Below, piece by piece: positions 950 through 64,000 of a DNA stretch of 64,000 nucleotides; position 1 is the stretch's first letter, and each line of letters starts with the position of its first letter. A program made the position numbers and the translations under genes. The notes under the pieces are model-generated. The model was not told the DNA's origin and ran no database searches. It worked only from the letters and a program-made list of their open reading frames with translations. Source of the stretch: Malacoraja senta (lineage: Eukaryota); assembly GCA_038087875.1 (NCBI GenBank), contig CM075991.1, positions 5,456,001 through 5,520,000 of the forward strand, given 5' to 3'.

Positions 950-2570
950 TAATAGGGTTGTCATAACAGGAGGTTTTAATTTTCCCAATATAGATGAGGA
1001 CAGCCTTAGCGCGAAGGGCTTCGATGGAGTGTAATATGTTAAGTGTGTTCAGGAAGTTTTCTCAAGTAATATGTAGAGGGCCTTACAAGGGAGAGGGCAA
1101 AGTTTGACCTACTCTTGGGGAAATGGGCAGGGCAAGTGACTGACGTGTCAGTCGACGAGCCTTTACGACCAGCGACTACAGTTCTGTTAGCTTTAAAATA
1201 GTTGTGGATAATGGACACAAGTTAAGGTTTCTAAATGGGAGCAAAGCTAACTTTAATGGGAAGGGTCTCAACCCGAAACATCATCCATTCCTTCTATCCA
1301 AAGATGCTGCCTGTCCCGTGAGTTCCTCCAGCATTTTGTGTCTATCTTAACTTTGATGGTATTGGACAGGAACTTGCAAAAGTTGATTGGAATCCGTTTT
1401 TGGTGGGGGAAAAGACATCTGGAAAATGGGATCTTTTAAAAGTGTGAAAGTGTGAGTGCAGATATATAGATAGATAGATAGAAGATAGAATGCCTTTATC
1501 GTCTTTCAAACAAACAGAGGTCTGAACGAATTTTCGTTCCCTGCAGTCATAACAGCAAAATAAACAACACACACAATTAGCACAGTTTCACACAAACATC
1601 CATCACAGTGAATCTCCAAACACCTCCTCACTGTGATGGAAGGCAAAAGTCTTATCTCTTCCCTGTTCTTTGTTCTTTTCCTGCGTCGAGGCGATCGAGG
1701 CTCTTGATGTTAAAGCCCCCGGCGGGCGATGGTGATCCTGTTAGAGTGATCCTGTTAGATTGAAGGGCAAGGTAGGGAAGAGTAAGGAACCCTGGATGAT
1801 GAGAGAAATTGAGGATCTGCTCAGGAACCAGAAAGACGCATGGATCAGGAATCGGCAACTGGAATCAAATGAATCCCTGGAGGAGTATAAGGAACTGTGG
1901 AGCAGACTTAGGAAGGAAATTAGGAGGGCAAAAAGGAAGCATGAAATAGCTCTTGCAGTTACGATTAAGAAGAATCTAAAGAGATGTTATATTTATATTA
2001 AGGGGGAAAGGGTAACTAAAGAGAGAATAGGATCGCTCAGAAACCAAAGTGGGTCATGTGTTTGTGGAGCTTTAGATGAGCAAGGAAATATTTCTCCTTC
2101 ACTTTTATAGCAACGTGAGACATGAAGATAAGTGTATTTGGGAAAGTTAATGCTGATGACAGTCCTTATTACAGTCAAGGAGATGCTGGATGTCCTTAGA
2201 CATATGACGGTAGATAGATTTCCCTGGCCTGATCAGATATATCCGAAGACATTGTGCGAAGCTTGGAAATAAATTGTATGAGACCTGGATGAGATATAAA
2301 TCATCTTTGGACATAGGTGAGAGGCCGGAAGACTGGAGGGTGGCTAAAGTCATGCCTCAATGTAAAAGGAGCTGCCAGGGCTGGGAAATATGGACTGGTA
2401 AATCTGACATCAAAGGTGGGAATGATACTGCAGACGATTCTACGGGATATTGTATGCATGTATTTGGAAAGACAGGGGTTGATTGGAGATAATCATCGTG
2501 GCTATGTGTGTAGGAGATCGTGCCTCTTCAATCTGATTGGATTTTTTGAAGAAGTAACTAAGAAGGTTGC
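950..2570 (+). mobile_element. Old fragmented CR1 LINE ORF2 (endonuclease to RT) interrupted by younger inserts
   Basis: Peptides RVVITGGFNFPNID, EPWMMREIEDLL..KEIRRAKRKHE, PEDWRVAKV and RSCLFNLIGFFEEVTK, with many stops and frameshifts. Confidence 0.85.
1465..1735 (-). mobile_element. 3' part of the GC-rich non-autonomous element, with (TCTA)n tail
   Basis: Close match to 49430-49650 (aaacatccatcacagtgaatctccaaacacctcctcactgtgatggaaggcaaa). Confidence 0.7.
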
Positions 2571-2814: not shown

Positions 2815-3122
2815 TTTTAGTTTTGATTTCAGAGATAAAGCATGGAGCATGGAAACAGGCCCTGCATCCACGCTGACAACTGATCACCCATACACTAGTT
2901 CTATCCTACACACTAGGGACAATTTACAGAAGCCAATTGACCTACAAACCTGCTCGTCTTTGGAGTGTGGGAGGAAACCGGAGCACCCGGACGAAACCCA
3001 CGTGGTCACGTTCAATACTCATAACATGCAAACTCCACACAGACAGCAGCCGAGGTCGGGATCAAACCTGGGTCTCTGGCGCTGTGAGGCAACTGCCCCA
3101 CCAGTTACGCCACTGTACCGCC
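2815..3122 (-). mobile_element. HE1-like tRNA-derived V-SINE
   Basis: tRNA-like head with A/B-box-like motifs, central domain and CR1-like tail, matching other copies in the window. Confidence 0.8.
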
Positions 3123-3149
3123 CTTCATGCTTTTAGGCTGACATGCTCA

Positions 3150-6052: not shown

Positions 6053-6162
6053 AAAGAAGGACTCTGTCTGAAGAAGGGGTTTCGGCCTGAAACGTTGCCT
6101 ATCTCCTTCGCTCCATAGATGCTGCTGCACCCGCTGAGTTTCTCCAGCATTTTCGTGTACCT
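6053..6162 (+). mobile_element. Penelope-derived terminal-repeat unit with hammerhead-like core and 17-bp TSD
   Basis: TSD ttaatactattgctgtt at 6036-6052 and 6163-6179; core ctgaagaaggggtttcggcctgaaacgtt. Confidence 0.8.
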
Positions 6163-6632: not shown

Positions 6633-7039
6633 GATGAAACACTGGAGCTGGAGTAACTCTGCGGGACAGGCAGCATCTCTGGGGAGAAGGAATGGGTGAC
6701 GTTTTGGGTCGAGACCCTTTTTCAGACTGAACAAAACTAAAGCTTCTTTGATACTTCTATCTAATTTCCAGAGGCTGGAAATTGTGCATAAAAACAGCCA
6801 CCATTTCAGAGGAGATTTTGGCTAGTTTTACTCAGAGCACCCAGACTGATATTGCATTCAGAACAAACCATCAAGTGTTGTGTGCGGGAGAGCAGTTTTT
6901 GTGGTAACAAACACACATTGTATTCCTTCCTCCAAAGCCTGTTATCACGGTGCAAAATGATTATGAAGGAAGGAGCTCAAGACGTTATTGGGACTGGGTG
7001 GTGAGAAATGGTGGGAATTCAGAAGTGAAAGCAGAGACT

Positions 7040-7737: not shown

Positions 7738-8148
7738 GGAGAGAGATGGGAGGTCACAGAGAGGTTGGAAGTCACAGTGAGAGGTTGGAGGTCACAGAGA
7801 GAGGTGGGAGGTCACAGAGAGGTTGGTCACAGGGAGAGGTGGGAGGTCAGAAAGAGAGGTTGGAGGTCACAGAGAGAGGTGGGAGGTCACAGAGAGAGGT
7901 TGGAGTTCACAGAGAGAGGTTGGAGGTCACAGAGATAGGTTGGAGGTCACAGAGATAGGTTGGAGGTCACAGAGAGAGGTTGGCCACAGAGAGAGGTTGG
8001 AGGTAGAGAGAGGTTGGAGGTCACAGACAGAGTTGGGAGTTCACAGAGAGAGGTTGGAGGTCACAGAGAGAGGTTGGAGGTCACAGAGAGAGGTTGGAGG
8101 TCACAGAGAGAGGTTGGAGTTCACAGAGAGAGGTTGGAGGTCACAGAG
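7738..8148. repeat. G-rich minisatellite, 20-bp unit GAGAGAGGTTGGAGGTCACA, about 20 copies
   Basis: Tandem array read directly from the sequence. Confidence 0.95.
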
Positions 8149-8913
8149 TGCGATGGGTAGTCAGTGATATTAATTTTAAATTCTTTGCTATGTTGGGCCG
8201 TGTACCAGAGCTGTCGATGAGCAATGGAGGGATATGTAGCTTGCCATCCACCAGGAGCTCTGCACCCTACCTTTTGTCCACCTCAAGTCTATGGCAGGAG
8301 GGAATGCGTCGCGGGGGGGGGGGGGGCACTAGGGGTGGGGGACAGAAGCTGCAATGAATAACAGGAGATGTTCATCCTTTGCTTCTGCCCGTGTAATATA
8401 AATATGTAAATTACCGATGCAATGCTAAAATAAATCGAGACTGTTTGATTTGTCTTGCTGTTCTGCTCAAGCCGTTTCCCGGGCTTGATGAGTCATGCTC
8501 TCCAGCATTTAATGTGTAATTTGAAGGCTGTAATGAGCTTGTGGGCGGGTTCACCACTCCTTATTAATTTTTTCTTCAGTAATTTATTCTGAATTCTGAT
8601 CCACATTTGCCAAAAACCCGAGTCGGTAAACATTGAGCAAGTAAGAAAGGGAATGTGAGGGGGCGGCCGGTATAACTGGAGGCCGGGAACTGCAGGTTTA
8701 AAGGTTGCACAATGTGTTTCTAGCCACATGTTTGGAGGCCCCATGGGGTTGGGGCTACAAGGGCAGCTGGTGGCCGGGAGGAGGGGGTCATTGTACTGCT
8801 GTGGAATCAACGAGACAGTCAGGGGAACGAATGCTGGTCGTTCTACAGAAATACCAAGAGAATGTCAGAGATAGATATGCCCTGTGAGAAGCTGGCATAA
8901 ATTCAGGAGCGTG

Positions 8914-9288
8914 CAAGGTCGTGGGGAGAGGTGGAAGGTCATGGGGAGAGGTGAAAGGTCGCGGGGAGAGGTGGAAGGTCGCAGGGAAGAGATGAAAGGT
9001 CGCAGGGAGAGGTGAAAGGTCGCGGGAGGGGCGGAAGGACGTGGGGAGAGGTGGAAGGTCATGGGGAGAGGTGAAAGGTCGCGGGGAGGTGAAAGGTCAT
9101 GGGGAGAGGTGAAAGGTCGCGGGGTGAGGTGGAAGGTCGCGGGGAGGGGTGGAAGGTCGTGGGGAGAGGTGGAAGGTCATTGGGAGAGGTGAAAGGTCGT
9201 GGGGAGAGGTGGAAGGTCATGGGGAGACGTAGAAGGTCACAGGGAGAGGTAGAAGGTCATGGGGAGAGCTGGAAAATCACAGAGAGGA
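8914..9288. repeat. G-rich minisatellite, about 20-bp unit GGGGAGAGGTGRAAGGTCRY
   Basis: Tandem array read directly from the sequence. Confidence 0.95.
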
Positions 9289-9573: not shown

Positions 9574-10234
9574 TGTCAGGAAGCGAACTCAGAGAAAGGA
9601 ACGGAGGCAGCAAACAGGTTAACCATCTGTTTATGGTTCATAGACTTGGGATGTATCCATGGATACTGCCTTACCTGCTGGGTGTTTCCAGCTTTTACTA
9701 TTTTAGTTTCAAATCTAACCTTTATCTGATGTACGCCTGTACAAACAAAAGCGGATTCTAAGAGCAGTCACCAGCGAGTGAGTGGGAGTAACATTTCCGG
9801 GCGATCTTAACTTACTTGTCCTGAAGATAAGGTGAAAGCTCCTAGCTCCCTAAATGCTGGCCAAGCCAATGTTTCCAGCACTTTGTTGATCGAAGTTGAA
9901 TCTTGCATTTTCCTTTTGCTTTGTTAATTATGAGGGAAGTTAATATTTCAGGTCGACGACCTTTCAACAAACCAACGCAATGGGACGAATCACTTCAGTA
10001 GAAGTTGCGATCACTGTCGTATATAGCATTGTAAAATATCAGTCTCTTTAATATCGTTAATATTTGGATTACTGCCGCGTGGCTTTGTAATATCACACGC
10101 TGTAAAAAAAAAGCAAGTTGTTGTTTTGGCAAATGGTCCAATGGAGAAGAGAGGTAGGACGTGCAACACCGTCTGAAGAAGGGTTTCGGCCCGAAACGTT
10201 GCCTTTCTCCTTCGCTCCATAGATGCTGCTGACC

Positions 10235-11000
10235 CAAGAGCGGAACTCGCTATGAAAACATGGAGGGGACGGGGGACACAAATTTTTTGCCGTCCGCGCG
10301 CACATGCGCACACTCACACACACGCGCGAGGCTTCGGAGGCTCAATCCAGCGCTAAATGCAGCTCAACTCTGCCTGTATCACCGGGTTAACTACAGCCCT
10401 GGCTGGACTGACGGGATACGAGCGCTGCTTCTCCGCGCTGGCCATATTTCCCGAAATCCAGAAAGGGCTGTAGGCTCACCTGGCGGGACAGGCAGAGTTG
10501 ACCTGGTTTAGCGCTGCTTCTCTGCGCTGCCTGTGGGCCTGGGGGCATCGCGCTGGTCTGATTCCCAACCAAAGATCCTATAGCGGAGGATCTTTGCTGC
10601 CGACCTCTCTGGCCACCCCCCCACCTGGGGGGGGTGGGGCACTCGGGACAGCGCCGGAGACCCGGCCGGGAGCGATCCTGCCTGCGGATGAAGCGCAGGT
10701 CTGTGCCACGTCTCCCTCCTCCAATAACCGCGCTCTATCCTCAGGCCCACCCCCCCACTCCTCCCACCTCCAATCATCGCACTGAATTATCATGTCCCGC
10801 CCCCATTGCCTGCTGACCGACGTCTCTCTCGTCCAATCGGCGCCCTCGATCTTCAGTCCCACCCCCACTGTCTCGCGGAAAGCGGAGATTTCATCGGGTT
10901 TTAAAATCCGGATCACAAAAACTTGGGGGGGATGTCCCCCACATCTCAAAACATGGGGGGGACGTGTCCCCTCTGGCCCCCCCTGGGTTTTCCGCCCCTG
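10235..11000. mobile_element. Non-autonomous hAT-like DNA transposon inserted in a Penelope terminal-repeat unit
   Basis: Ends caagagcggaa and ttccgcccctg (CAGGGGCGGAA-type terminal inverted repeat, TIR); TSD gctg-acc/gctgcacc. Removing it restores ccatagatgctgctgcacccgctgag as at 6114-6140. Confidence 0.72.
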
Positions 11001-13430: not shown

Positions 13431-13940
13431 TTAATAACCAGAACTCTTTACAGAAAACCAGGCGAACAGAACTGAGCACTGAATGAAAAGGAGTGGCTCA
13501 TGCTGGTAACATAACTCCCAACTGAATGAAACTATTTAGTCAGTAAATGTGTACATTGGGATCTTATCTCTTTCTGTAGTTGGGATTACTAGTGAACAGG
13601 ACTATGGCCAGTGTATGCAACTGCAACACTTGGCCAGAGATCTCCATTTTATTCAACCATATGGACGTGGATTTGCTTCCAATTTTCCTTGTGAAATGTA
13701 AGCTTACATTTTTAGCATGAATCTTGCTACTTGCAGAATTGGCTAGCGCAAGTGTAGATGCATACGCTGGAAGAGTGGGGAGCTGGCAGACTATATGTGG
13801 GCTACACAGATCCAGCTAAGATTGTATGGCAGCAGGAAGAGCTCACACCATCACTCCCAGGGATCTTCAAAGACTATCCACTTGTTGGGGTTTGACTGGT
13901 AGAGTCAGCTGGAGGAAACGATCTACCTGCAGCACCACAG

Positions 13941-14250
13941 GGCAGCAGGGTGGCACAGCGGGTGGAGCCGCTGCCTCACCACGTCAGAGACCCGAGTTCG
14001 ATCCTGACCTCGGGTGCTGTCTGTGCGGAGTTTGCACGTTCTCCCTGTGACTGCATGGGTTTCCTCCGGGTACTCCGGTTTCCCACCACATCCCAAAGAC
14101 ACGTGGGTTTGAAGGTTAATTGGCCTCTGTAAATTGCCCCTAGTGTGTAGGGCGTGGGATAACATGGAACTAGTTCAAACGTGTGATCTATGGTCAGCGT
14201 GGACTCGTTGGACCGAAGGGCCAGTGTCCATGCTGTATCTCTTCACTAAA
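13941..14250 (+). mobile_element. HE1-like SINE
   Basis: ggtggcacagcgggtggagc...gagttcgatcc (A/B boxes) and tail. Confidence 0.82.
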
Positions 14251-14476
14251 CCACTGTCAGGTAACTATAAACGCACTAAATCCCTCTGATCTACAACACT
14301 CTCCAAGTACCCTACCATTCACTGTGAAGGTCCTGCCCTGGTTAGACTTCCCCAAATACTGCTCCTCTCACTTATCTGAATTAAACTCCATTTATCATTC
14401 CGTGTCCACTTGCCCAAGATCCTATAATAATTCTTGTTACCCATCTTCAATGTCTAGAATCCCACCTATTTTAGTG

Positions 14477-14662
14477 CAGGAAGGAACTGCAGGTGCTGTG
14501 TTCCACCAAGTATAGACACAAAATGCTGGAGTCAAGACATTTTGGGTCAAGACTCTTCTTCAGGCTGAGAGTCTGATGAAGGGTCTCGACCCGAAACACT
14601 ACCTATTCCTTTTCTCCAGAGATGCTCCCTGACCCGCTGAGTTACTCCAGCATTTTGTGTCT
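14477..14662. mobile_element. Inverted Penelope terminal-repeat pair with CTGATGA hammerhead-like core
   Basis: Arms agacacaaaatgctggagt and actccagcattttgtgtct; TSD acctat(t/g)ttagtg. Confidence 0.75.
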
Positions 14663-15414: not shown

Positions 15415-15855
15415 AAATAGACACAAAATAGACAATAGACAATAGGTGCAGGTGGAGGCCATTCGGCCCTTCGAGCCAGCACCGCCATTCACTGTGACCA
15501 TGGCTGATCATCCACAATCAGTACCCCGTTCCTGCCTTCTCCCCATATCCGCTGACTCCGCTATCTTTAAGAAGTCTATCTAACTCTCTCTTGAAAGCAT
15601 CCAGAAGAATTGGCCTCCACTGCCTTCTGAGGCAGAGAATTCCACAGATTCACAACCCTGCTGGAGTAACTCCGCAGGATAGGCAGCATCTCTGGATAGG
15701 AATGGGTGACGTTTCGGGTCGAGAAGTCGGAAGAAGGGTCTCGACCCAAAATGTCACCCATTCCTTCTATCCAGAGATGCTGCCTGTCCCGCTGAGTTAC
15801 TCCAGCATTTTGTGTCTATCTTCACTATAAACCAGCATCTGTAGCTCCTTCCTAC
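15415..15855. mobile_element. CR1 3' end (minus strand) fused to an inverted Penelope terminal-repeat pair
   Basis: CR1 tail (tagacaa)n at 15418-15443; inverted arms at 15661-15720 and 15730-15810. Confidence 0.75.
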
Positions 15856-20914: not shown

Positions 20915-21262
20915 GCCCCTCTCCCCGGCTCCCTCCGCCTCCCCTCTTCCTCCTCCCTCCTCCCTCCTCCTCCTCCTCCCTCCTCCCTCCTCCCTCCTCC
21001 CTCCTCCCTCCTCCCTCCTCCCTCCTCCCTCCTCCCTCCTCCCTCCTCCCTCCTCCCTCCTCCCTCCTCCCTCCTCCCTCCTCCCTCCTCCCTCTCCCTC
21101 CTCCCTCCTCCTCCTCCCTCTCCCTCTCCCCTCTCCCCTCTCCCCTCTCCCCTCTCCCCTTTTCCCCTCTTCCCCTCTTCCCCTCTTCCCCTCTTCCCCT
21201 CTCCCCCTCTCCCCCTCTTCCCCTCTTCCCCTCTTCCCCTCTCCCCCTCCTCCTGTGTGTGT

Positions 21263-21303
<41 letters not shown>

Positions 21304-21368
21304 TGTGTGTGTGTGTGTGTGCGTGTGTGTGTGTGTGTGTGGGTGCGTGTGTGTGTGTGGGTGTGTGT

Positions 21369-21455
<87 letters not shown>

Positions 21456-21456
21456 C

Positions 21457-21500
<44 letters not shown>

Positions 21501-21579
21501 GTGTATGTGTGTGTGTGTGTATGTGTGTGTGTGTGTGTCTGTGTGTGTGTGTGTCTGTGTGTGTGTCTATGTGTGGTGT

Positions 21580-21616
<37 letters not shown>

Positions 21617-22230
21617 TGTGTGTGTGTGTATGTGTGTGTGTCTGTATGTGTGTCTGTGTGTGTGTATATGTGTGTGTGTGTATATGTGTGTGTCTGTGTG
21701 TGTGTGTGTGTGTGTCTGTCTGTGTGACTGTGTGTGTGTCTAAGTGTGGTGTGAATGTGTGTATGCTTGTGTGTCTGTGTGTGTGCGTGTGCGGTTTTGT
21801 GTGTGTTTGGTTGTCTGTGTGTGTGGTTGTGTGTGTGGTTATGTGTGTGTCTGTGTCGCTGTGCATCTATATGTGTGTCTGTGTATGTATGTCTATATCT
21901 GTGTATGTTTCCGTGTGTGTATATTTATGTGTCTGTACATCTGTTTGTCCGTGTGTATGTGTGTACATTTCTCTGTCTCTGCCTCTGTATATATCTCTGC
22001 TTATGTGTGCCTATGGTTATATCTGTTTGTCTATTTCTGTGCATCTATGCTTGTCTATGTGTGTGTTTGTGTGTATGCGCCTGTGTGCTTCCGTGTGCCT
22101 GTGTCTGTGCTTTTGTCTGTTGGTCTGTGTTTGCGTCTGTTGACCTTTGTTGTCTATGCATGTGCCTTGAGTCTGCCTCTGTGTGTGAATGTGTGTGTGT
22201 GCATTTGCTTGAGTCTGCCTCTGTGTGTGT
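20915..22230. repeat. Compound microsatellite: C/T-only tract (about 20939-21254) then about 1 kb of decaying (GT)n
   Basis: Read directly from the sequence. Confidence 0.97.
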
Positions 22231-24850: not shown

Positions 24851-25143
24851 CGAGAAAAACATAGAAACATATCTGAATTATAGGTAATCAAACTTACCAA
24901 TAGCTGCTTCCTCTGGTTACAATTCGTAACTCCTCCATTCTTTGGACACACACCTTTATTTTAATCACTGACCTTTCTCTAACCATCTGCCCTCTCCCCC
25001 CTCCCCTTCCCTTCGCCTGTGACCTGCCAGTTTGACCTGCCCCTCCTCTCTTCTAGCTTGCTCCCACCTCCACGCTCCCCACCCCTACCCCGCTCTCACA
25101 ATCAGTTTGAAGAAGGGTCCCAACCTGCAACATCACCTATCCA

Positions 25144-25280
25144 CTGAGTCTGAAGAAGGGTGTCAACCCGAAATGTCACCCATTCCTTCTCTCCAGAAAT
25201 GCTGCCTGTCCCGCTGAGTTATTCCAGCTTTTTTGTGTCCATCTTCGGTTTAAACCAGCGTCTACAGTTCCCTCCTACGC
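25144..25280 (+). mobile_element. Penelope terminal-repeat unit nested in an older Penelope 3' end (about 24970-25350)
   Basis: 14-bp TSD acatcacctatcca at 25130-25143 and 25281-25294. Confidence 0.8.
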
Positions 25281-25869
25281 ACATCACCTATCCATGTCCT
25301 CCAGAGATGCTGCCTGACCCGTTGAGTTACTCCAGCACTTTGTGTCTTTTATGTTACTTTATTGGTGGCTGAATTCCCTGTATCTGTTAATCTAAGAAAT
25401 TGTGATTGTTGCTCCAGCAATTAAAATATTTGCTAGTCCCTCTGAAGCATTTTACCTTCGCTGTGATTCATAAAGGCTTCAGGTAAAGGTCTATTATTAT
25501 ATAATCTCTCTAACTGATTAATAAAACTAAGGATCAGATATTTCAGCCATATTATTTTGCTCTCCCAAGTTTACATTTCCAATTTTAATCATTGGGATGA
25601 GCTTGAAAATTAATTCCGAGCTGGAGATTGGTGTCTTAAAACTGGTGATCAGATTCTAAATTTAAAATTAAACTCTCCTCAAAAGCCTTTAATATGATAA
25701 ATATAACTGGCGTGCAGAGCTATCAAGAAGGTACATTAGCAGGCTGTGAGATCTGGCAATGTTTACTATTCCCCTTGTCCTCGTTAGCCATCAATGTGAA
25801 TATTCACAACCTGTCTCATCAATGCGCTTGCAGGCAGTGAACTTGCAACAGGTTCATATCTGTTGAAGG

Positions 25870-35330: not shown

Positions 35331-35567
35331 GAAGTTTGGGGGGAATGCTTGGTAAGGTGATATTTACTTGGTAAGGTCCCAATGTTTTCTCCTGCGAATT
35401 AGTTGGTTTTGCAGCACAGGAGAGATTCGGATGTGGGAAAGATGCCGGCAGCGATTCTACGCTGAGGTGAATGACCTTTGTTAGTTTGTTGTTAGAATGA
35501 AAACAAAAAATGGTGGAAATCAGTGGCTCAGGCAACATCGTGGGAAGAGAAATAGATATCATGTCTC

Positions 35568-35999: not shown

Positions 36000-36628
36000 A
36001 GGGCCTGTCCCACTTGGCCGTCATTTGCGCAACAGGCCGGTAGTGACTGACGCGCGACAGTCGCACGCATCATCATGCGTCCGCACAGACGTCTGGAGCG
36101 CGTGACGTCATTTAAATACCCAGTTTATGATATTTACCCAGTTTATGATATTTATGGTGATTTTCTAAAATGTTCCAGTTTCTTGAGTGGTGCTAGCAAT
36201 TGGAAAAATTGCAGATGTAATGCCCCTATTCAAAAAAAGAACTGAATGAAAAGTAGCAAGCTGCAGACCAAATTAATCTGTGGGAAGGAACTGCAGATGC
36301 TGGTTTAAATTGAAGATAGACACAAAATGCAGGAGTAACTCAGCCTGACCGGCAGCATCTCTGGAGAGAAGGAATGGATGATGTCTCTGTCTGAAGAAGG
36401 GTCTCGACCCAAAACGTCACCCATTCGACCCGAAACGTCACCCTGTCCCACTTGGGTGTCATTTACGCGACAGGCCGGTGGCGCGCGAAGATTTCGTACA
36501 GGACGAAATCCTGGAGCGCTGCGTGATACCGCGCGCAACTCCACACTCCTCCACGCCACTCCGCGCTACCCACACGCTACCAGGTCGCGTAAATGGAGCG
36601 CAAATGACGGCCAAGTGGGACAGGCCCT
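36000..36628. mobile_element. Harbinger-type MITE pieces (36000-36112 and 36441-36628) bracketing CR1 and Penelope fragments
   Basis: Perfect 31-bp inverted repeat at 36000-36030 and 36598-36628; TAA at 36629. Confidence 0.8.
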
Positions 36629-41660: not shown

Positions 41661-43211
41661 CGTCCTTTTACCTCTTCTTGGTAGAGTCCGTATGTCGCTG
41701 GACTTTAATGGTGTTTACTCTCTCCCCTTTTCCTGCTGGCTAAAAGGCCGCAGTATAACATTTCACCCTCTGCTGAATATGCTATATATCGTAGAACATA
41801 GAACAGTACAGCACAAGAACAATGTCTGTGTCGATTATGATGCAAAGACCATCTCTTATCTACCTATGCATAATTCATATCACTCCATTACCTGCATATC
41901 CTTATGCCTATCCAAAAGCCTCTTAAATGCCACTATCGTATCTGCCTCCACCACCACCCCTTAAACTTTCCCCTTCGCATCTTAAATCTATGTATATTTG
42001 AGATTTTCCATCCTGGGAAAAAATGTTCTGACTGTCTACCCTATCTATGCCTCTCAAAATGTTATATTCTTCACCAGGTCTCCTCGCAACCTCCGCCTTT
42101 CCAGATCATGCTTCGTATTTTGAACTCCACTTTTGATATTCAGTCCCGTCAATAGATTGTGCATTCAGCACTCTCAGCTGGGGAGGATTTTCCATCTCCA
42201 TTCGTCTATCGGGTGGCACCCGATTTCCTGTGCCCCTTCCTCTTCCCATTGTTCCCAACCAGAAGGTGAGGTGGCAGAAGTCACAACTTGTCATTGGCCT
42301 TCCATTGATTAGTGGTTGACCACTAAAGCGCGTACCCATTTGCCATCCCAGCAGGAAGGTGAGATAAATGTGGGGGAGGAGAGCATGAATTGAACAATGG
42401 ATCCATAACTCCATTATTCCTGCATTAGCGATCCAATGATAAGAGACCAAATCCCAACATGGCAACTGGTGGAATTAAAACACAATTGTTCAAATATATC
42501 TTGATGTGGAAGTTGGACACAAAGTGCTGGTGTAACTCAAGAGAAAAGGTTGGGCAAACCCGTCTTCAGACCAGAAACGTCACCCATTCTTTTTCTCCAG
42601 AGATGCTGACTGACCCGCTGAGTTACTCCAGAATTTTGTGTCTATCTTTGGTGTAAACCAGCATCTGCAGTTAACTGCCAGGCAAGACATCTTGATGTGT
42701 GCATGAAACCACTGCTTGATTTTTGTCCTTCCCAATTTTGGATCGAAGTGGCCATGGGCAGCACACATCACGACAGTTAACTCTTCAATGCCCTGTGAAA
42801 TAAACCAACAGGCACCTAGTTCAGGCAAAAATGGAGAAGGGGGAAATTGGAGAAACTGGAAAATGTGACAAACAGAAACCTTGCCAGCAGTGGCCAAATG
42901 TTGTGAATGAATAGAGCGATTGTTTTAGCTCCGCAGGTGTTGGTGAGTCACCTGTGTTGCTGATATTGTTGCACTGCCTGTCCTCTTGTGTTTCCACTGT
43001 TGTCCCTGAAGAGCCAGTTCATTCGCATGCCCATGGGCCTGAGCCTCCCGCTTTGTGGAACTCAGTGCACCAGCTGCAAAGGAGTATTAATATTAGGGAT
43101 CTCCAACTGAGACCTCGAGGATGGAGCACCGAGCAGGTTGGGAGCAAGATCAGCTGGCAGCTGGTGGACAGGAGTCTGTCTCTCAGGAGGGGATCTCTTT
43201 GCTGTCTGCTG

Positions 43212-45411: not shown

Positions 45412-45620
45412 ATAATAGCGAACCACTGTTCAACAACCAAGTCCTGACCCTTGGTAAAAATCACCCTTTGGCCCTGTCTTATTTAGTGGGGGTGCCGCCC
45501 TCTTTATTTTGCCCTGGTCATGGCCTTGGTCCCATGTGGAATCTTTTCCAATGTAGAACAATGCAAAAATGCAAGGTGCCTTTTATTCAACATGCACATT
45601 GCACCCTTTCAATACGCTTT

Positions 45621-45920
45621 GGGTGGCACAGAGGCGCAACAGTAGAGTTACTGCCTTACAAATATAGGGACACAGGTTCGATCCTGACTATGGGTGCTGT
45701 CTGTACAGAGTTTGTACGTTCTCGCTGTGAACTGTGCGGGTTTTCCCCGGGTGCTCCGGTTTCCTCCCACACTCCAAAGATGTACAGGTTTATAGGCTAA
45801 TTGGCTTGGTAAAATTGTAAATTGTCCCTAGTGTGTTAGTGTAAGGGAATCACTGGTCAGCATGAACTCGGTGGGCCAAAAGGCCAGTTTCCGCCCTATA
45901 TCTGAAAACTAAACTAAAGT
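45621..45920 (+). mobile_element. HE1-like SINE
   Basis: Matches other copies in the window. Confidence 0.85.
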
Positions 45921-47154
45921 AAAAAAGCAAAACCAGAGCTGATACCAATGTAGTGAATGGGGAAAAAGAAGAAATAAATTCTGTCTGATTTAGTTACATC
46001 TATGTGATGAAAAGGCTGGTTGTATTTTCACTACATCAAGCAGTGCTTTATTCATTGCTTTGATTAGAAACTACAGAAAGGGTCACAGAAAGGAAAAGTG
46101 AATAAAATTGAAACTCCTTCAGAAGAATAAACCAAGTGCGATTTAGTAGTTTGCATAACAGATCTCAGCTAAATCCATGACAGCGTAGTGTTTTATTTTG
46201 TCGACCTTAATGGTTTTTATCAAAAATCAATTCATATCAAAGGAACTTACAAAATTCATGCGTTTTGACATTACCCAAATCTTGAAACTTAAGAATTATG
46301 TTTACTTCAATTAATAAGAAAATTAGTTAGTCCTGATAAGCCAATCAGGTAGCTAAGTAACATTCACTGAAGTCTCAAACGTTTTTATCGTTTATAAAAT
46401 GTACGAGCAAATTTTCACGATTGAAAGTGCAAACAGGGTGTGAGATGGTCTGGTATGCAATTCCACATTTTGTGCTGGGACTGAGACTAGATATACTCAC
46501 ATTCTCCACTGCCCTCATTTACTCAGATGAATGCAGTAACATGGATGTAAGGAGTTGGGTGGGAAAAGGACACTTGTGGAAAGATTATTCAAAAAATAGA
46601 TACTTAGCCTTCCATTCTAGAATGGATGAATTTAAGTTGTGTTTTATATAACTGACTAGGGAAAGATGAAACCGGATAATTTATATAACTAAATCGTGGA
46701 ACGGAACAAGGATGCACAGATTCAAGTAAATGGAAGGCAATGAAGTCAGGATTTTTTATTATCACGCTCCGGTTGATCAACGTAAAAGATAAATTGCAAT
46801 CAGGTGTTACCATGGGTGAATTTCCACAGACAATGAACTAACACAGGGAAAATACATTTCTTCATTGTAATTGTCTTACAATCTTGTGCAAATATGATCA
46901 GTGCATAGGTTCGTACCAAAGTGTGCTCATCTACAGCTGTGATGTGATAGTTACGCTTGTTTTAAATAGTAGTTTGGCCTACTTTTTACTCCATACCTTT
47001 TGTTTGGAGAATCATAAGATTGTTTGGTCAAAACAGAACAGAAACTCTTATATCCCTTAATAAATTCATTGCAAAAATAAAGAGAACATAAAAGCATCTC
47101 TCCACCATCAAGTAGATTTAATTAGACATCTCACGCCAACATATCACCCCAAAA

Positions 47155-47356
47155 GGTAGACACAAAATACTGGAGTAACTCAGCGGGTGAGGCAGCCTAT
47201 CTGGAGAGAAGGAATGGGCAACTTTTCGGACTGAACAAGGGTCTCGACCCGAAACGTCGCCCATTCCTTCTCTCCAGAGATGCTGCCTCACCCGATGAGT
47301 TACTCCAGCATTTTGTGTCTACCTTCGATTTAAACCAGCCTCCGCAGTTTTTTCTT
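47155..47356. mobile_element. Inverted Penelope terminal-repeat pair (arms about 75 bp)
   Basis: ggtagacacaaaat...cgg and ccgaaacgtc...ttttgtgtctacc; TSD acatatc(a/t)ccccaaaa. Confidence 0.85.
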
Positions 47357-48395: not shown

Positions 48396-49242
48396 TCAAC
48401 ACTCTTTCTTGGATTCCTGCACCTCTATCTATTGCAGCATACAAAAGATACATTCCAAACTTGCCTGTAAACATACAAATGAACACATCAGGATGAGCAT
48501 ATCCAGGGATTTGTGGATATTCTTCTGCATTTGGATTGTATGTAGAATGGAAGTGGCATAAGCTGCTCACAGATTAGAAACACTGAATGCTGGTTTAAGA
48601 TGTCGTTGCGATTCAGAAAATCTTCAAAAGGAGTGTATCGAGCTATACATGTAGCTCCAAGATATGACTTCCATCTCATATTGTTTCTTAAAATATAAGA
48701 TATATAATTACATTTTGCTATTTATTGGTGAGACTTCTTATGATTCCCACTCGTAAAATCACAGTATACCCAAGACATAAAATGCTAGAGTAACTCCGCT
48801 GGTCAGGCAGCATCTCTCGAGAAAATGGGCGGGTGATGTTTCGGGTCGGGTCCAAAGAAGGGAAACGACACCAATCCTTTTTCTCCAGAGATGCTGCCTG
48901 ACCCGATAGGTTACTCCAGCCCTTTGTGCCTATCAATTGACAATTAAATCCATTAGTCCTTAACTATTACCATTCTGGTATTATTTGTGAACATTTTGTT
49001 AGGCTTGGAACTATTCTCATTATTACAGCTCAGGTGAGTCGGGAGGTGGAGAACGGATGGGGAGGAATATTGGTAAAAAACAATGTGGTGGGGAGAACAG
49101 TGGCTGTCAGAAGTTGGAGTTAGGAAAAACACCCTGTTCTCTCAGAGATTACCCTGCACTCTCTATCAAGACCACCCTGGTCACTCTGCCCTCTCTAGGT
49201 CCAAATGAATAGGATTTCTGAAATTATGTTGCATAAAACACA

Positions 49243-54657: not shown

Positions 54658-54714
54658 TCGGAATAAAGATGAATGGTGCAGGACTAAAATATAAGCAAGG
54701 CTGCAAATACTGGA

Positions 54715-55565
54715 ATTCCCCTAGTCCTCACCTTCCACCTCACCAATCTCTGCATTCAATGGACCAACATTTGTGATTTCCCTAAGATCCAGCAAGATTC
54801 ACAGCCCGACACCTCCTCTCCTCTCATTTTGATGGCACCATTCCTTTTGTCACTCCCTGGACTGTTCTTCTATCGCGACCAGTCGCTGCCTTTCTTACAC
54901 CATTTTCCCATGCAGCCGCAGGGAACGCAGCATCTATCCTTTCAAATCTACCCATGAGGGCTTCAAACATTCCTTCCGGGATAATAGTGATTCACTTTTG
55001 CAGCCAGCTTTCATAATACAAGTCAAGTCAAGTCAAGAGAGTTTATTGACATGTGTCCCTGACAGGACAATGAAATTCTTGCTTTTCTTCAGCACAACAG
55101 AACATAGTAGGCATTGACTACAAAACAGATCAGTGTGTCCATATACCATTATATACGTAAATACACAAATACAATGTTGAGATTATCACAGATTTGGGTA
55201 ATCGCTTTGTGGAGTACCTGCGCTCAGTCCAGATTTGACCCTCAGCTCCCTCTGGCAAGACATTAATTTTCCATCCCACTCACACTCTGACCTATGTGTC
55301 TGTCCGTCCCTCCCACAGCACCTCATGTTCCATCTGGGCATGGTGCAGCCTTCCAAAATCCATTGTGAATTTGATATCTTCTGGTAACTCATTTTCTTGA
55401 TCTGTGTCACAACTGGCCACTTCTGTTGTAAGGCAACCAGTCCGGAGAAGGGACCCGACCCGAAACTTCGCCTATCCATGTTCTTCAATGATACTTCCCT
55501 GCCGAGTTGCTCCAGCACTTTGTGTCTTTCTTTGGTAAATCAGCATCTGCAGTTCCTCGTTACTA
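54715..55565 (+). mobile_element. Degraded Penelope 3' half ending in the terminal repeat, split by a Rex1 tail (about 55018-55180)
   Basis: RLGNRFVEYLRSV- and FHLGMVQP-like remnants run into gaagggacccgacccgaaac. Confidence 0.65.
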
Positions 55566-56892
55566 CTAACCATCTGTTATATTAGCTCAGCCTTTCTCTC
55601 TCCGTTAGCACAGCCAGACCTGCTGGAATTTTACATAGGACACGAAGTGCTGGAGTAACCCAACGGGTCAGGCGGTGTCTCTGCAAGACATGGCACCCTT
55701 CTTCAGACTGATTGTAGAGGGGGAGAGAAAATTGCAAAAGAGATGGGAACAGGACAAAGCCTTGCAAATGTTAATTTGATATTGGTGTAGGGGAATTCTG
55801 ATTGGCAGATGGGTGGACAAATTATTTTGTTTTTCTTTCTTTCCTGGTTCTGGTGATAGCACTTTGACCTGAATTGTTGGATTCTTCCTTCAGTTACTGT
55901 TTGATCTGCTGAATGTTAGCAGCATTTTCTGTTATTAAAAGGGAGTGAAACTAATTGGACAGCTTTTTCAAAGAATTAACAGAAGCGTGATGGGCCAAAT
56001 TGCCTCCTGTAGTGCAACATTCTGGTGATTCTATTTATAGGCTGCGCATAATATTCTAAACCTTTGCTAGCTTGCTATGGGACTGTGGAGACCTATGTTG
56101 GTTTTACTTAATTAAATTTTAATCCTTACAACAGAAGTTAAATGCATATTCTTCCCAATGCTCCTGTAATTTTAATTTGGTAAGGAACATTTTTAAAAAA
56201 CGGATATAGCCTTCTTAGCATTAAACGTTAGGCTAAAGAAACGACAGCATATTAGAATATAAGTTGATACATCAGTGAAGCATTGCAAGTAAGACCTTAG
56301 AGTAAGGATTCAATCAGGTGGATCTCCTGACATGTTTGATGGTACAACCGGCTGAATCTAAAGCAATGTCTGTCACTATGCATTTACCTCTTAAACATAA
56401 ACCACGTGACGGTGACTTCTCGGTCTTGACAGCAGTTGGTGCACAGAAGTGCGCAGACTCGAACCGAAGGAGAGATGAAAACTGCAAGTCCATCATTCCT
56501 GCACTGGCTACCCACAACAGTTTCTCAGGGGTAAGGGAGAAAGCCACAGTCTTTTCCAGATTTACGGGCCAGCACCATCCAGTGGTTATCTTTTGAACCC
56601 AGTCTCACCCTCTTCTGGAGCATTTGCGTCAATTTCCAAGACGGGTTTAGCAGTAAGGGTGCATATTGAACAATGCAGTGTAAATGTCGACAAAGTGAAA
56701 ATGATCTGTGGATCGTTTCATCAAAGCTCGACACAGCAGCCTCCATTCCTAACTTCAAACTCTCCAACATAAAGCACAATCCATGTCAACACACGTAACA
56801 TGGATGTGCAACTGTAAAGGCATGGGAATAGATCCATGGCTGCACCTGTGTTTCACTATCAAGCACTTTCTACAGTTTGTTAAAAGCACAGT

Positions 56893-58340: not shown

Positions 58341-59134
58341 TACTTGACTCTTAATGGATCAATAAATGGTTGTGATTTGGAAAACAAACAAACATGGCCT
58401 TATTAAAGATACTGAATATCAAATGGAAGTGTTCAAAATAGAGCGATAGATTTGTCTGACGGTACAGTCAGCTCTGGTTCAGTATGTAGTTTGCACAACT
58501 GAGTAAAATGGCTGTTGGTTCAGGTTCTGCTCAGCAACTTAAGCACAAAATACAAGCAAATACTCCATTGCAGCACTGGGGGATTGCTGTACTGTTGGAG
58601 ATGCCATTTCAGATAAGGCAAACTGAGATATTTACTGTACTTTCAGCTAAATTTGACAAGCAGAATAGGTGCATTCCCCCAGATATTCTCCCAATATCAA
58701 TCCCTCAAACCAGACATCTCACCACTAGCTGAACATGCTTGCTGTATGCTTTTACAACTTTCTCCCCCTGACTACAATCAGTCTGAAGAAGGATTCTGAC
58801 CCGAAAATATCACATATCCATGTTCTCCACAGATGCTGCCAGACCCGTTGAGGTACTCCAGCAATGGGTTCTACCTTGATTTGTAAGGACTGACACATTT
58901 TCCCATTCCAATATTGAACAAACTACAAGTATTTCATGTGTAGGAAGGAACTGCAGATGCTGGTTTAAATCTAAATGCTGGAGTAACTCAGTGGGACAGG
59001 CAGCATCGCTGGAGAGAAGGAAGGAGTGACGTTTCGGGTTGAGACCCTTCTTCAGACTGAAGTCAGGGGAGTGGGTGGTACATAGATAAGGAAGTCTGAA
59101 GAAGGGTCTCGACCCGAAATGTCACCCATTCCGT

Positions 59135-60425
59135 CTTCCTTGAATGGAGGCCCTAGTAGTTCACCTCCATACTCACTGACTTGGCTGAACACAATTTCAG
59201 ATTAAACGACTTCTCCTTCATTTTAACTCAATGTCCTCAGAACAAAGGTAGTGCCATGGGAACTTGCATGGACCCAAGCCATGCCTGTCTTTTTTCTTGG
59301 ACACATGCAACAGTCTTTGTTTCAATCCTACTCAATTCTTTCACTGGTACATTGAGAATTGAATTATCAGTAGTGATATTTCCTGCACTCATAGAGAACT
59401 CACAAATTTCATTATGTTTACCATCAATTTCTTCCTTGCTCTTACCTTTACGAGGTCCCTTTCTGACTCTCTCCTTTCTGGGTCTGTCCACCACTTCAGG
59501 AGATAGGTTAGACATAAACACCCATTACATATCCACAGAACGCACATGGTTATACTTGCTCCCACCATGTCTCTTGTAAGTACTCTAAAGCATTCTCCCA
59601 GTTCCTCAATCTCATAAGGTCATAAGTGATAGGAGTGGAAATAGGCCATTCGGCCCATGAGTTCTACTCCGCCATTCAATCATGGCTGATCTATCTCTCC
59701 TTCTTAACCCCATTCTCCTGCCTTCTCCCCATAACTCCTGACACATGTACTAATCAAGAATCTATCTATCTCTTCCTTAAAAATAACCATTGACTTGGTC
59801 TCCAAAGTCTTCTGTGTCATTTAATTCTGAGGCTATGAGCTCTAGTCCTAGACTCTCCCAAATAACTAATTTGATCCATTGTTGGTGCTCCCGAAATGTC
59901 TGCCTTATTCATAAACTATAGCTTCCCCCTCTACTGTAATGGCCAGGATCCCTGACCCCATCTGATCCATTTCTTGAGCTTCTCTCAGCATCTCTCCTCT
60001 TGAAACAATGTCAGAGACCAATGGTCTTCATCAACACCTCTGCATTCAACGGGTCATTTTTTAACAATTTCTGGCAGGTCCAACAAAATTGCACCACTGG
60101 ATACGTATACCACTCCATTCCCTTTTTAGCATTTTGGAGCAATTATTCCCTTTGTGACTCCTGGTGCACTCTCGGTTCCCACCTGCCACTCCTCACCTTG
60201 TGGCACTGTCAGTTTTCCACGGGACATGCAACAACTGTTCTTACACATCTTCCCTTCCCACTATTCAGGACTCAAACAGTCTATCCCATGAAGCAGTGGT
60301 TCACTAGCACTTTGGCCAATCTCTTCTCCTATACCTGGTGTTCACAATGTGGTCTCCTCATCACTGGTGAAGCCACCTGCAGATTAAGTGATCACTTTAC
60401 ATAGCAGCAGCATTCAGTCTGTCAG
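59135..60425 (+). mobile_element. Degraded Penelope-like element (RT plus GIY-YIG), split by a CR1 fragment at about 59615-59860
   Basis: LNDFSF..QNKGSAMGTCMDPSHACLF (Penelope RT) and FTSTLANLFSYTWCSQCGLLITGEATCRLSDHF (decayed GIY-YIG). Confidence 0.8.
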
Positions 60426-60917
60426 TGCAACAACAGGGGGGCTCTGAGTAAGATGGGCATGAATTTGGAAAGATAAAACACATTTACAATGTTTGGTAAG
60501 GAAGGAAGGTTGGACATGGGGCAATAGGTTTGTAAAGATGAAAAGGCTTTTGAGAAGAGCGTGGTGATGATGATAATTTTCTACAGTCTATCTCAGTTTT
60601 CCAAATTCTTGCCACTTACCCAGATCTCCTTGTGCGAATGACCCCAATTATGTTTCCATCCCTACCACTAGATTGAAATTCAGCCCTGATCAAAGTTGCA
60701 AATTGGCACCAATCCAGAACTTGAGGAGAAAGCTGTTAATGATGTCAGTTAACATAGAATTCAGGAAGAAAGTTGGGTGGTCAGGAGTTTAATGAGAACA
60801 GGATTGAGGGAGATGGGGACAAGTTTTATCGATGAATTTGGAAAGAACAACGTTTGATAAGAAGGAAACTAGAGAAATGCAGATAGTGACAAGGAGCTCC
60901 TTGCACCTATTGGATGG

Positions 60918-62985: not shown

Positions 62986-64000
62986 CTTACGACTATTCAG
63001 AGCAAAAGATAATGTCATATTCTGGTTTTACAGTGACCAGATAACAAAGTGGAATTAACTGCAGGAAGCTTTATGGGACAAAAAAGATTGCTGAGAAATC
63101 TTGTGGTTTTTTTAAATTCCACTATAACAACATGACCTAAAAACTAACCTGATATAAACTTTCAAAGCAGAGCTTCACATATAGGTAAAAGTTGTATGAC
63201 ACAAAAGTGACTAGTTATGTTTAGGTATTTATATGAGGTATAGATTCAAACCTAGACACAGCAGCAAGGATTCACATTTAAAAATTAAATGCTTATCTTT
63301 GCAACATTTTGGCTTGAGTTCATTTTTTCTGTGGTCTACAACATTGCAACATAAATATAAAGGTTAAATAAAATCTGAAAATTTGTGGAGGAGTCTTAAA
63401 AGCCTGTGGCATCCTGTTGAACTACTCCAACCTACTTCTGACATTTCCCTGCTTTGCTGACTTCTGCCTTTCATGATCCTAAGAGTTTCTTCTGAGTCAC
63501 CGTTCCAGTGAGTAGATCAGTGAGTAGATATACATATCTGCCAGCATGACTCATACACTAACATACATTACTACTGTCTCCAGTTAGATGCTGTACAGGG
63601 TGGTTGGGGATTTCCAAATCTTTGCACTGTTGAGTTTAACAAGATTATTAAACAAACATGGTTTCCAGATTTTCCTGAGCCAATCTCTAAATATGATGGT
63701 TTCCAATCTTTTCGTGCTATGAAACCTTTTTGAATTAAAACTGGATGAATCTTGCTAATCTTTCAATTTTGGAACAATCAAATGCCCAAGTTATGATGAA
63801 GAGTCTCAGACCAGAAACATTTACTGTGCCTCTTTCCATAGATGCTGTCTAACCTGCTGGTGTTTTCAGCATTTTCTGTTTTATTGTAGATTTCCAACAT
63901 CTGCTGTTTTTGACATTACCAATTTAGTTTTATAGCCACAATTCAATTTCCCCTCCTCGAATCTTCATGCAATTATTGTTTTTTTAAATTTGAGCTATCT

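Follow-up and report, generated by a model that had tools for sequence, protein, structure and literature searches.

Two copies of a short repeat lie head-to-head at 58940–59135 of the window (the whole 64-kb stretch of DNA analysed), each carrying a hammerhead ribozyme motif, and next to them is the decayed ORF of a Penelope-like element (PLE). An iterated profile seeded from the feature at 59028 gave 35 pieces of a unit of ~132 nt, which occupy 26 loci and 3,289 bp, i.e. 5% of the window. Principal copies and neighbouring features are listed in Table 1. The subfamily labels A, B and C were assigned by eye; the divergence analysis omits two of the 35 pieces, and its B-type figures, with three members, are uninformative.

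Table 1. Hammerhead-bearing units, head-to-head pairs and PLE ORF remnants in the window
Position	Strand	Feature
1260..1347	+	tail-less unit, 5'-truncated, target duplication of 12 bp
6053..6160	+	B-type unit, GUU triplet, AACGUU, 17-19-bp target duplication
6634..6729	-	tail-less unit, 13-bp duplication within low-complexity DNA
10170..10247	+	B-type unit, intact hammerhead, 3'-truncated
14477..14662		head-to-head pair, one tail, 13-bp target duplication, palindromic junction
15659..15855		head-to-head pair, one tail
25144..25280	+	A-type unit inside C-type unit (25103-25351), 14-bp duplication of unit positions 28-41
36280..36426		head-to-head pair, one tail, other arm ending at position 40
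42509..42686		head-to-head pair, one tail, 13-bp target duplication
47155..47356		head-to-head pair, one tail, 16-bp target duplication
48771..48935		head-to-head pair, both arms tail-less
54694..55387	+	second PLE ORF remnant, thumb/linker to GIY-YIG end, stop 55385-55387
55438..55562	+	C-type unit with tail, 50 nt past stop codon, same strand
55621..55710	-	C-type unit, internal deletion, long upstream region
58779..58878	+	older C-type unit without tail, upstream pyrimidine-rich sequence
58940..59059	-	tailed A-type unit (hammerhead, body of ~65 nt, PLE tail of ~34 nt) with 12 nt deleted internally
59025..59058	-	minimal type I hammerhead, predicted cleavage site 59028/59027
59060..59092	-	pyrimidine-rich stretch upstream of hammerhead
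59093..59135	+	partner in inverted head-to-head orientation, covering unit positions 2 to ~41
59096-59123	+	partner's hammerhead, palindrome changed to AUGU
59133..60430	+	decayed PLE ORF remnant: RT, thumb, linker, N-terminal half of GIY-YIG
59612..59860		other multi-copy repeat, inserted in RT remnant

Anatomy and condition of the hammerhead

The hammerhead occupies unit positions 2–35, with the core at 5–11, an extra A at 12, stem II at 13–16/21–24, GAAA at 25–28, a palindrome at 28–31 and predicted cleavage after 32. In the minus-strand 59055 copy, stem I (AGU, 59058–59056) pairs with ACU at 59027–59025; the core CUGAAGA begins at 59055 and is followed by a single extra A, then by stem II (GGGU/ACCC around a 4-nt loop), GAAA, the palindrome ACGU and a GUC triplet that ends at 59028. 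The full core and GUC triplet that a sequence-only reading of this DNA had described here are therefore present, and the motif copies listed by that reading were all found within 1–2 nt of where it placed them (its 58782 is 58783). It was also right that stem III is reduced to a palindrome, ACGU or, at 6068 and 10173, AACGUU; the A-U pair of the palindrome is kept in 17 of 18 aligned rows. The 3-bp stem I that it gave holds for the 59055 copy but not for the family: the third pair occurs in three of the 18 rows (A-U in the 59055 copy and in a locus outside the window, L001; G-C in one row), so that the family stem I is 2 bp, a helix formed in 15–16 of the 18 rows, and a 3-bp stem I is ruled out as a family trait.

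Thirteen matches in the window to CTGAWGAAGGGTN4RCCCGAAA with at most two mismatches, against none in 100 dinucleotide shuffles, rule out a chance motif. The unit has the core CUGANGA...GAAA, a NUH triplet, the G10.1-C11.1 pair and an extra base after A9, as in minimal type I hammerheads, and a palindrome in place of helix III, as in those of PLEs; this anatomy supports the earlier assignment to the minimal type I hammerheads of PLE terminal repeats. At a threshold of E<=10, no hammerhead model of Rfam matched the window. Pattern scans gave no matches in viral contigs, prokaryote genomes or plasmids; in metagenomes the exact 33-mer had none and a looser pattern had two.

Eighteen pieces span the core to the cleavage site. 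With insertions ignored, core letters are kept in eight of them, together with all four stem II pairs in five, and with a Watson-Crick ACGU palindrome as well in three (59055, 10173 and 6068); the others are mostly decayed, often at CpGs. Conservation was compared within the 13 copies that cover both regions, at non-CpG positions, a test that supersedes an earlier pooled one (p=0.002), in which copies of different extent were mixed. Differences from the consensus are rarer in the core than downstream (7/130 vs 87/731, p=0.03), which lends modest support to selection on master copies; stem II has 6/91 and loop II 6/26. The covariation that the sequence-only reading proposed as a check does not exceed shuffles, the score being 0.155 vs 0.137 for shuffled alignments (59 of 500 shuffles reach the observed score), and stem II changes among the 18 rows are one-sided only. 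Changes in subfamily B preserve pairing (U-A to U-G) and a permitted triplet.

In five of the six window copies that gave a valid read-out, stem II has a predicted probability of <=0.06, the core being paired instead with the pyrimidine tract downstream. An alternative hairpin that sequesters the core (unit positions 5–16 with 33–51) is predicted in A-type and B-type units and in a metagenome contig, L002 (L002:6-61), and is absent in L001; judged from these folds, it could be a ribozyme lock or an effect of base composition. For the inverted pair at 58940–59135, a 35-bp hairpin that buries both motifs is predicted in the transcript of either strand.

Unit ends, target duplications and inverted pairs

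The 3' ends fall at two places, 13 of the 35 pieces ending at positions 92–101 and 14 at 123–132 (eight elsewhere). These ends, ~34 nt apart (positions ~98 and ~132), delimit an optional PLE "tail" of the 30–40 bp seen in pseudo-LTR (pLTR) insertions of EN+ PLEs. Neither a poly(A) nor a simple-repeat tail was found in the unit alignment, and ARAGORN gave 0 tRNA genes in the window, a program that decayed SINE heads can escape. The tail contains a 10-bp palindrome, GGTTTAAACC, at unit positions 101–110 (e.g. in 25147–25278), and its positions 110–117 are able to pair with body positions 51–58.

At the other end, 19 of the 35 pieces reach position 6 or lower, and in the trimmed alignment of all 35 no 5' end falls at position 33, the cleavage site. 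With 5' ends upstream of that site and none at it, the templates were uncleaved. No upstream sequence is shared in 15 of the 19 pieces that reach the 5' edge, the ORF-adjacent copy among them; compared, on hand-entered counts, with the rate at which pieces terminate between positions 98 and 7, such a stop has p~1e-15. The subfamilies behave differently: 13 of the 14 A/B-type pieces reaching position <=6 stop at about -3 to +5, vs three of four C-type pieces that run on into upstream sequence of weak similarity (two pairs align with scores of 41 and 54, vs shuffle maxima of 38 and 43; a third pair, 29 vs 44, fails). The only A/B-type copy that continues upstream does so at 59060–59092, where its likeness to C-type upstream sequence is not above shuffles.

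Simple random 5' truncation fails to account for the A/B-type stops at the ribozyme edge. Candidate causes are a transcript start at the boundary sequence TCAGT, which we take to fit the initiator consensus, resolution at a short palindrome such as that of the 14477 junction, or an independent master that is itself short; a splice acceptor at CAG is ruled out as the cause, no common upstream exon being present. Rotifer PLEs have pLTRs with defined 5' ends and palindromes (PMC3846280, accessible text), which makes such an edge less surprising.

Target duplications of 12–19 bp with at most one mismatch flank seven of the 26 loci, vs 13 of 400 random intervals (3.25%; p=1.5e-5); one of the seven lies in low-complexity sequence, and the other 19 loci, that at 58940–59135 included, have no duplication passing the threshold. 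The duplications are AT-rich (69 of 100 bases, vs 55% A/T for the window). They bound inserts of 88–202 bp and directly abut them, so that the copies must have been inserted short, and erosion of formerly long copies is ruled out.

Seven of the 26 loci are head-to-head pairs, with a tail at one end only in six. Wherever a pair has a duplication (three cases), its tail-less arm stops at the short site, as would fit a priming of both target strands; in three of the six one-tailed pairs the other arm ends early, at positions 40, ~41–45 and 84. Like insertions of EN+ PLEs, the loci thus include target-site duplications and an inverted 5'-truncated copy beside the 5' end. None of 34 TRF rows is a tandem array of the unit, the sole overlap being a 21-bp local duplication at 36404, and permuted or head-to-tail units were not found in the window.

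Some copies have peculiarities. (i) The forward arms at 25103, 36388 and 59093 all end near position 40–41, possibly a preferred cut site within the repeat. (ii) Both arms of 47155–47356 carry the same three uncommon variants (positions 33, 62 and 96), suggesting one template or conversion between arms. (iii) The unit-in-unit insertion at 25103–25351 falls across the cleavage-site region. (iv) A short inverted piece resembling a tail end (6053–6061) precedes a B-type unit, inside its target duplication. (v) More diverged relatives at 63794–63908 (with a CUGAUGA core), 9654–9715 and 35495–35558 are probably an older subfamily. The window also holds 20-bp minisatellites (7739–8148 and 8911–9274, about 21 and 18 copies), a 600-bp TG microsatellite (21254–21856) and a separate window-wide family of ~300-bp repeats (e.g. 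2816–3135, 13935–14253, 45618–45926) with at least 20 overlapping matches per locus in self-comparison.

PLE protein remnants beside the units

The RT remnant that had been placed at 59135–60425 is real: the stretch 59133–60430 matches proteins of sharks and rays across RT, thumb, linker and GIY-YIG, with remnant cysteines in the linker, and is broken by stops and frameshifts. The chondrichthyan context proposed for it also stands. The four nearest RT relatives that were looked up are whale-shark proteins, and relatives named with a species come from sharks, rays and a skate, with the exception of one partial bacterial record. Three of eight phmmer matches (P0004, P0005 and P0008) were discarded as repetitive proteins. 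Pfam gave nothing above threshold for three pieces of the remnant, a word-index search with the endonuclease piece gave no candidate, and viral and prokaryote contigs held no loci related to the relative P0012. A cysteine linker and a GIY-YIG at the C terminus are present in P0012, P0056 and L002 and partly decayed in the remnant; the available part of PMC8557442 gives the RT-EN linker cysteine motif as common to Neptune and Nematis, and from the protein sequences the PLE clade is likely Neptune.

The RT of the remnant is 45–53% identical to its named relatives, which are themselves 77–95% identical to the whale-shark reference. The adjoining hammerhead pair is 7–9% from its subfamily, so that the far more decayed remnant would be a separate, older insertion; a single insertion of pair and remnant with an internal deletion is disfavoured by the age mismatch. 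The earlier proposal that the family is driven by a Penelope RT holds as regards mobilisation by PLE machinery; the adjoining remnant, judged by its divergence, probably did not drive these copies.

The second remnant, which the sequence-only reading had not mentioned and which is interrupted by other sequence at about 55000–55180, is compatible with forming one old element with the C-type unit that follows it, itself about 19% diverged from its subfamily; the 50 nt between them (55388–55437) are unlike what lies upstream in other C-type copies. Each of the ORF remnants has one end less than about 60 nt from a unit (chance 0.009). In L002 the same hammerhead architecture directly precedes an intact ORF of ~900 aa with RT and GIY-YIG, and in L001 the motif lies head-to-head with an RT. 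In L002:10-200 the ORF's frame stays open from just past the core's two UGA codons up to the first ATG, ~60 codons on. The unit-ORF link thus comes from a pair of decayed remnants and a single contig from another organism; the window contains no full element and no A/B-type copy joined to an ORF 3' end.

Origin of the units and known systems

The anatomy of the unit, the target duplications, the two 3' ends, the inverted pairs and the ORF adjacency, all observed directly, are in our judgement likely the outcome of solo pLTR insertion by a chondrichthyan PLE of Neptune type. A mechanism can be modelled on the biochemistry of the anole PLE (PMC11167929, accessible text), a Poseidon and not a Neptune element. 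The GIY-YIG domain would cut both strands of AT-rich DNA, and the RT would prime inside the RNA at either of the two sites ~34 nt apart (positions ~98 and ~132). The cDNA would then run back through the uncleaved hammerhead, usually ending in it or at its 5' edge. A single cDNA would give a solo unit, and priming from both target strands a head-to-head pair with one tail; self-priming has also been proposed for such pairs (PMC3846280, accessible text). The hammerhead probably worked in the RNA of a master element, as a dimer or with protein help, and in these genomic copies would by analogy be a decaying passenger.

Three other origins were weighed. The young A/B-type units may instead form an independent non-autonomous element of ~135 nt, with its own masters and start site, using PLE protein in trans on uncleaved RNA. 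Their sharp edge without common upstream sequence speaks for this, as do the upstream continuation, weakly similar, of most C-type pieces, the lack in the window of an A/B-type copy at an ORF 3' end and the boundary TCAGT, presumably initiator-like. Yet there is one A-type copy that continues upstream, autonomous PLEs are known to produce solo pLTRs as well as pLTRs that have a defined length and a 5' palindrome (PMC3846280), and the anole protein required RNA downstream of the priming sites (PMC11167929), which such units would not have; from what these sources make available, we think this origin unlikely. Far less credible is a non-LTR retrozyme, in which tandem units cleave themselves and form circles that are reverse-transcribed, either as monomers or as multimers. 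The type I hammerhead fits, tandem source arrays could lie outside the window, and retrozymes are reported as PLE pLTR derivatives, present in the sole chondrichthyan genome sampled (10.64898/2026.07.22.740005, accessible part). But the hammerhead is minimal rather than canonical, and the window has neither unit arrays nor permuted or head-to-tail units. Uncleaved templates, taken with a definition that requires tandem units, argue against a retrozyme cycle, and the "retrozyme-like" label of the sequence-only reading is not supported, with no arrays in the window and with 5' ends upstream of the cleavage site.

Nor does it seem at all probable that the motif is, in this lineage, an inherited non-cleaving relic, retained for some different role (protein binding, RNA dimerisation) or without one. 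A stem I of only 2 bp, the weak predicted stem II, the copying of uncleaved templates and the failure of eight of nine predicted Xenopus dimers to cleave (10.64898/2026.07.22.740005) are what such a relic would lead one to expect; against it, core and stem II are conserved more than loop II and the downstream sequence, subfamily B keeps its pairing and a permitted triplet, and the anole minimal hammerhead likewise looked silent until protein was added (PMC11167929), again from the accessible parts of both sources. One further idea we hold only tentatively, doubting it more than not. The young copies may record a defined RNA 5' end 0–8 nt before the core, as run-off cDNAs reaching from an internal priming site back to where the transcript starts or as a ~135-nt non-autonomous element that PLE protein spreads on uncleaved RNA, with ACGU pairing two RNAs in a dimeric PLE particle and the hammerhead serving as a dimerisation signal first, cleaving late if at all. 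If true, ACGU-paired RNAs would have both target strands primed and yield head-to-head pairs.

Returning to solo pLTR insertion, the units are best read from their sequence as a known kind, PLE end pieces with a minimal hammerhead, in a new animal group of shark or ray type. Motif class, insertion pattern and retrozyme link are already published. We found no description of this particular family in the literature covered; Repbase/Dfam, subscription papers and preprint supplements, outside that coverage, may contain it. PLE minimal hammerheads are thereby extended to a cartilaginous-fish family, dense here with 26 loci in 64 kb. The many short duplication-bounded inserts naturally record the points at which PLE reverse transcription begins and ends, and the agreement of uncleaved templates with in vitro data bears on what weak PLE ribozymes do.

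In the accessible parts of the sources compared here, the closest motifs are those of metazoan PLE pLTRs (Cervera & de la Pena 2014, PMC4209133), reported among others from Neptune PLEs of fishes. As here, they are type I without a real helix III, have a palindromic 15.2–16.2, an extra nucleotide between 9 and 10.1 and a G10.1-C11.1 pair, and are mostly dispersed single motifs with some close opposite-strand pairs. Helices I and II are 2 and 4 bp here vs 4–5 and 7–8 bp in the Schistosoma families; D. virilis is reported to have a helix I of 2 bp. Cartilaginous fish were not found in the accessible text of that paper or in two of its three supplementary files. Non-LTR retrozymes (PMC7229834, 10.64898/2026.07.22.740005) are likewise short and non-coding, with a type I hammerhead, PLE pLTR kinship and dependence on PLE protein, but are defined by at least two tandem ribozyme-bearing units, of which the window has none, and by circular RNA; vertebrates sampled in the latter study had Neptune and Poseidon.

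PLE insertions are described with an inverted pLTR, an optional 30–40-bp tail, a target duplication and solo pLTRs (PMC3846280, PMC8557442, PMC2377424), and the window shares with them head-to-head pairs, one-end tails, a palindromic junction, target duplications and insertion into earlier copies. Unlike the insertions described in the available text of those papers, a whole insert here spans only 88–202 bp and has the ribozyme edge as its 5' boundary, and duplications are 12–19 bp vs 8–10 bp in rotifer PLE examples. Poseidon_Ac of the green anole (Frangieh et al. 2024, PMC11167929, accessible text) differs in clade, relatives of the window remnant carrying the Neptune/Nematis cysteine linker, and in that no ORF start is evident in the window unit; it resembles the units in that its hammerhead lies near the 5' region of the RNA, its tail is set by two RT start sites inside the RNA, its targets are AT-rich, both strands are extended and uncleaved RNA is the main template.
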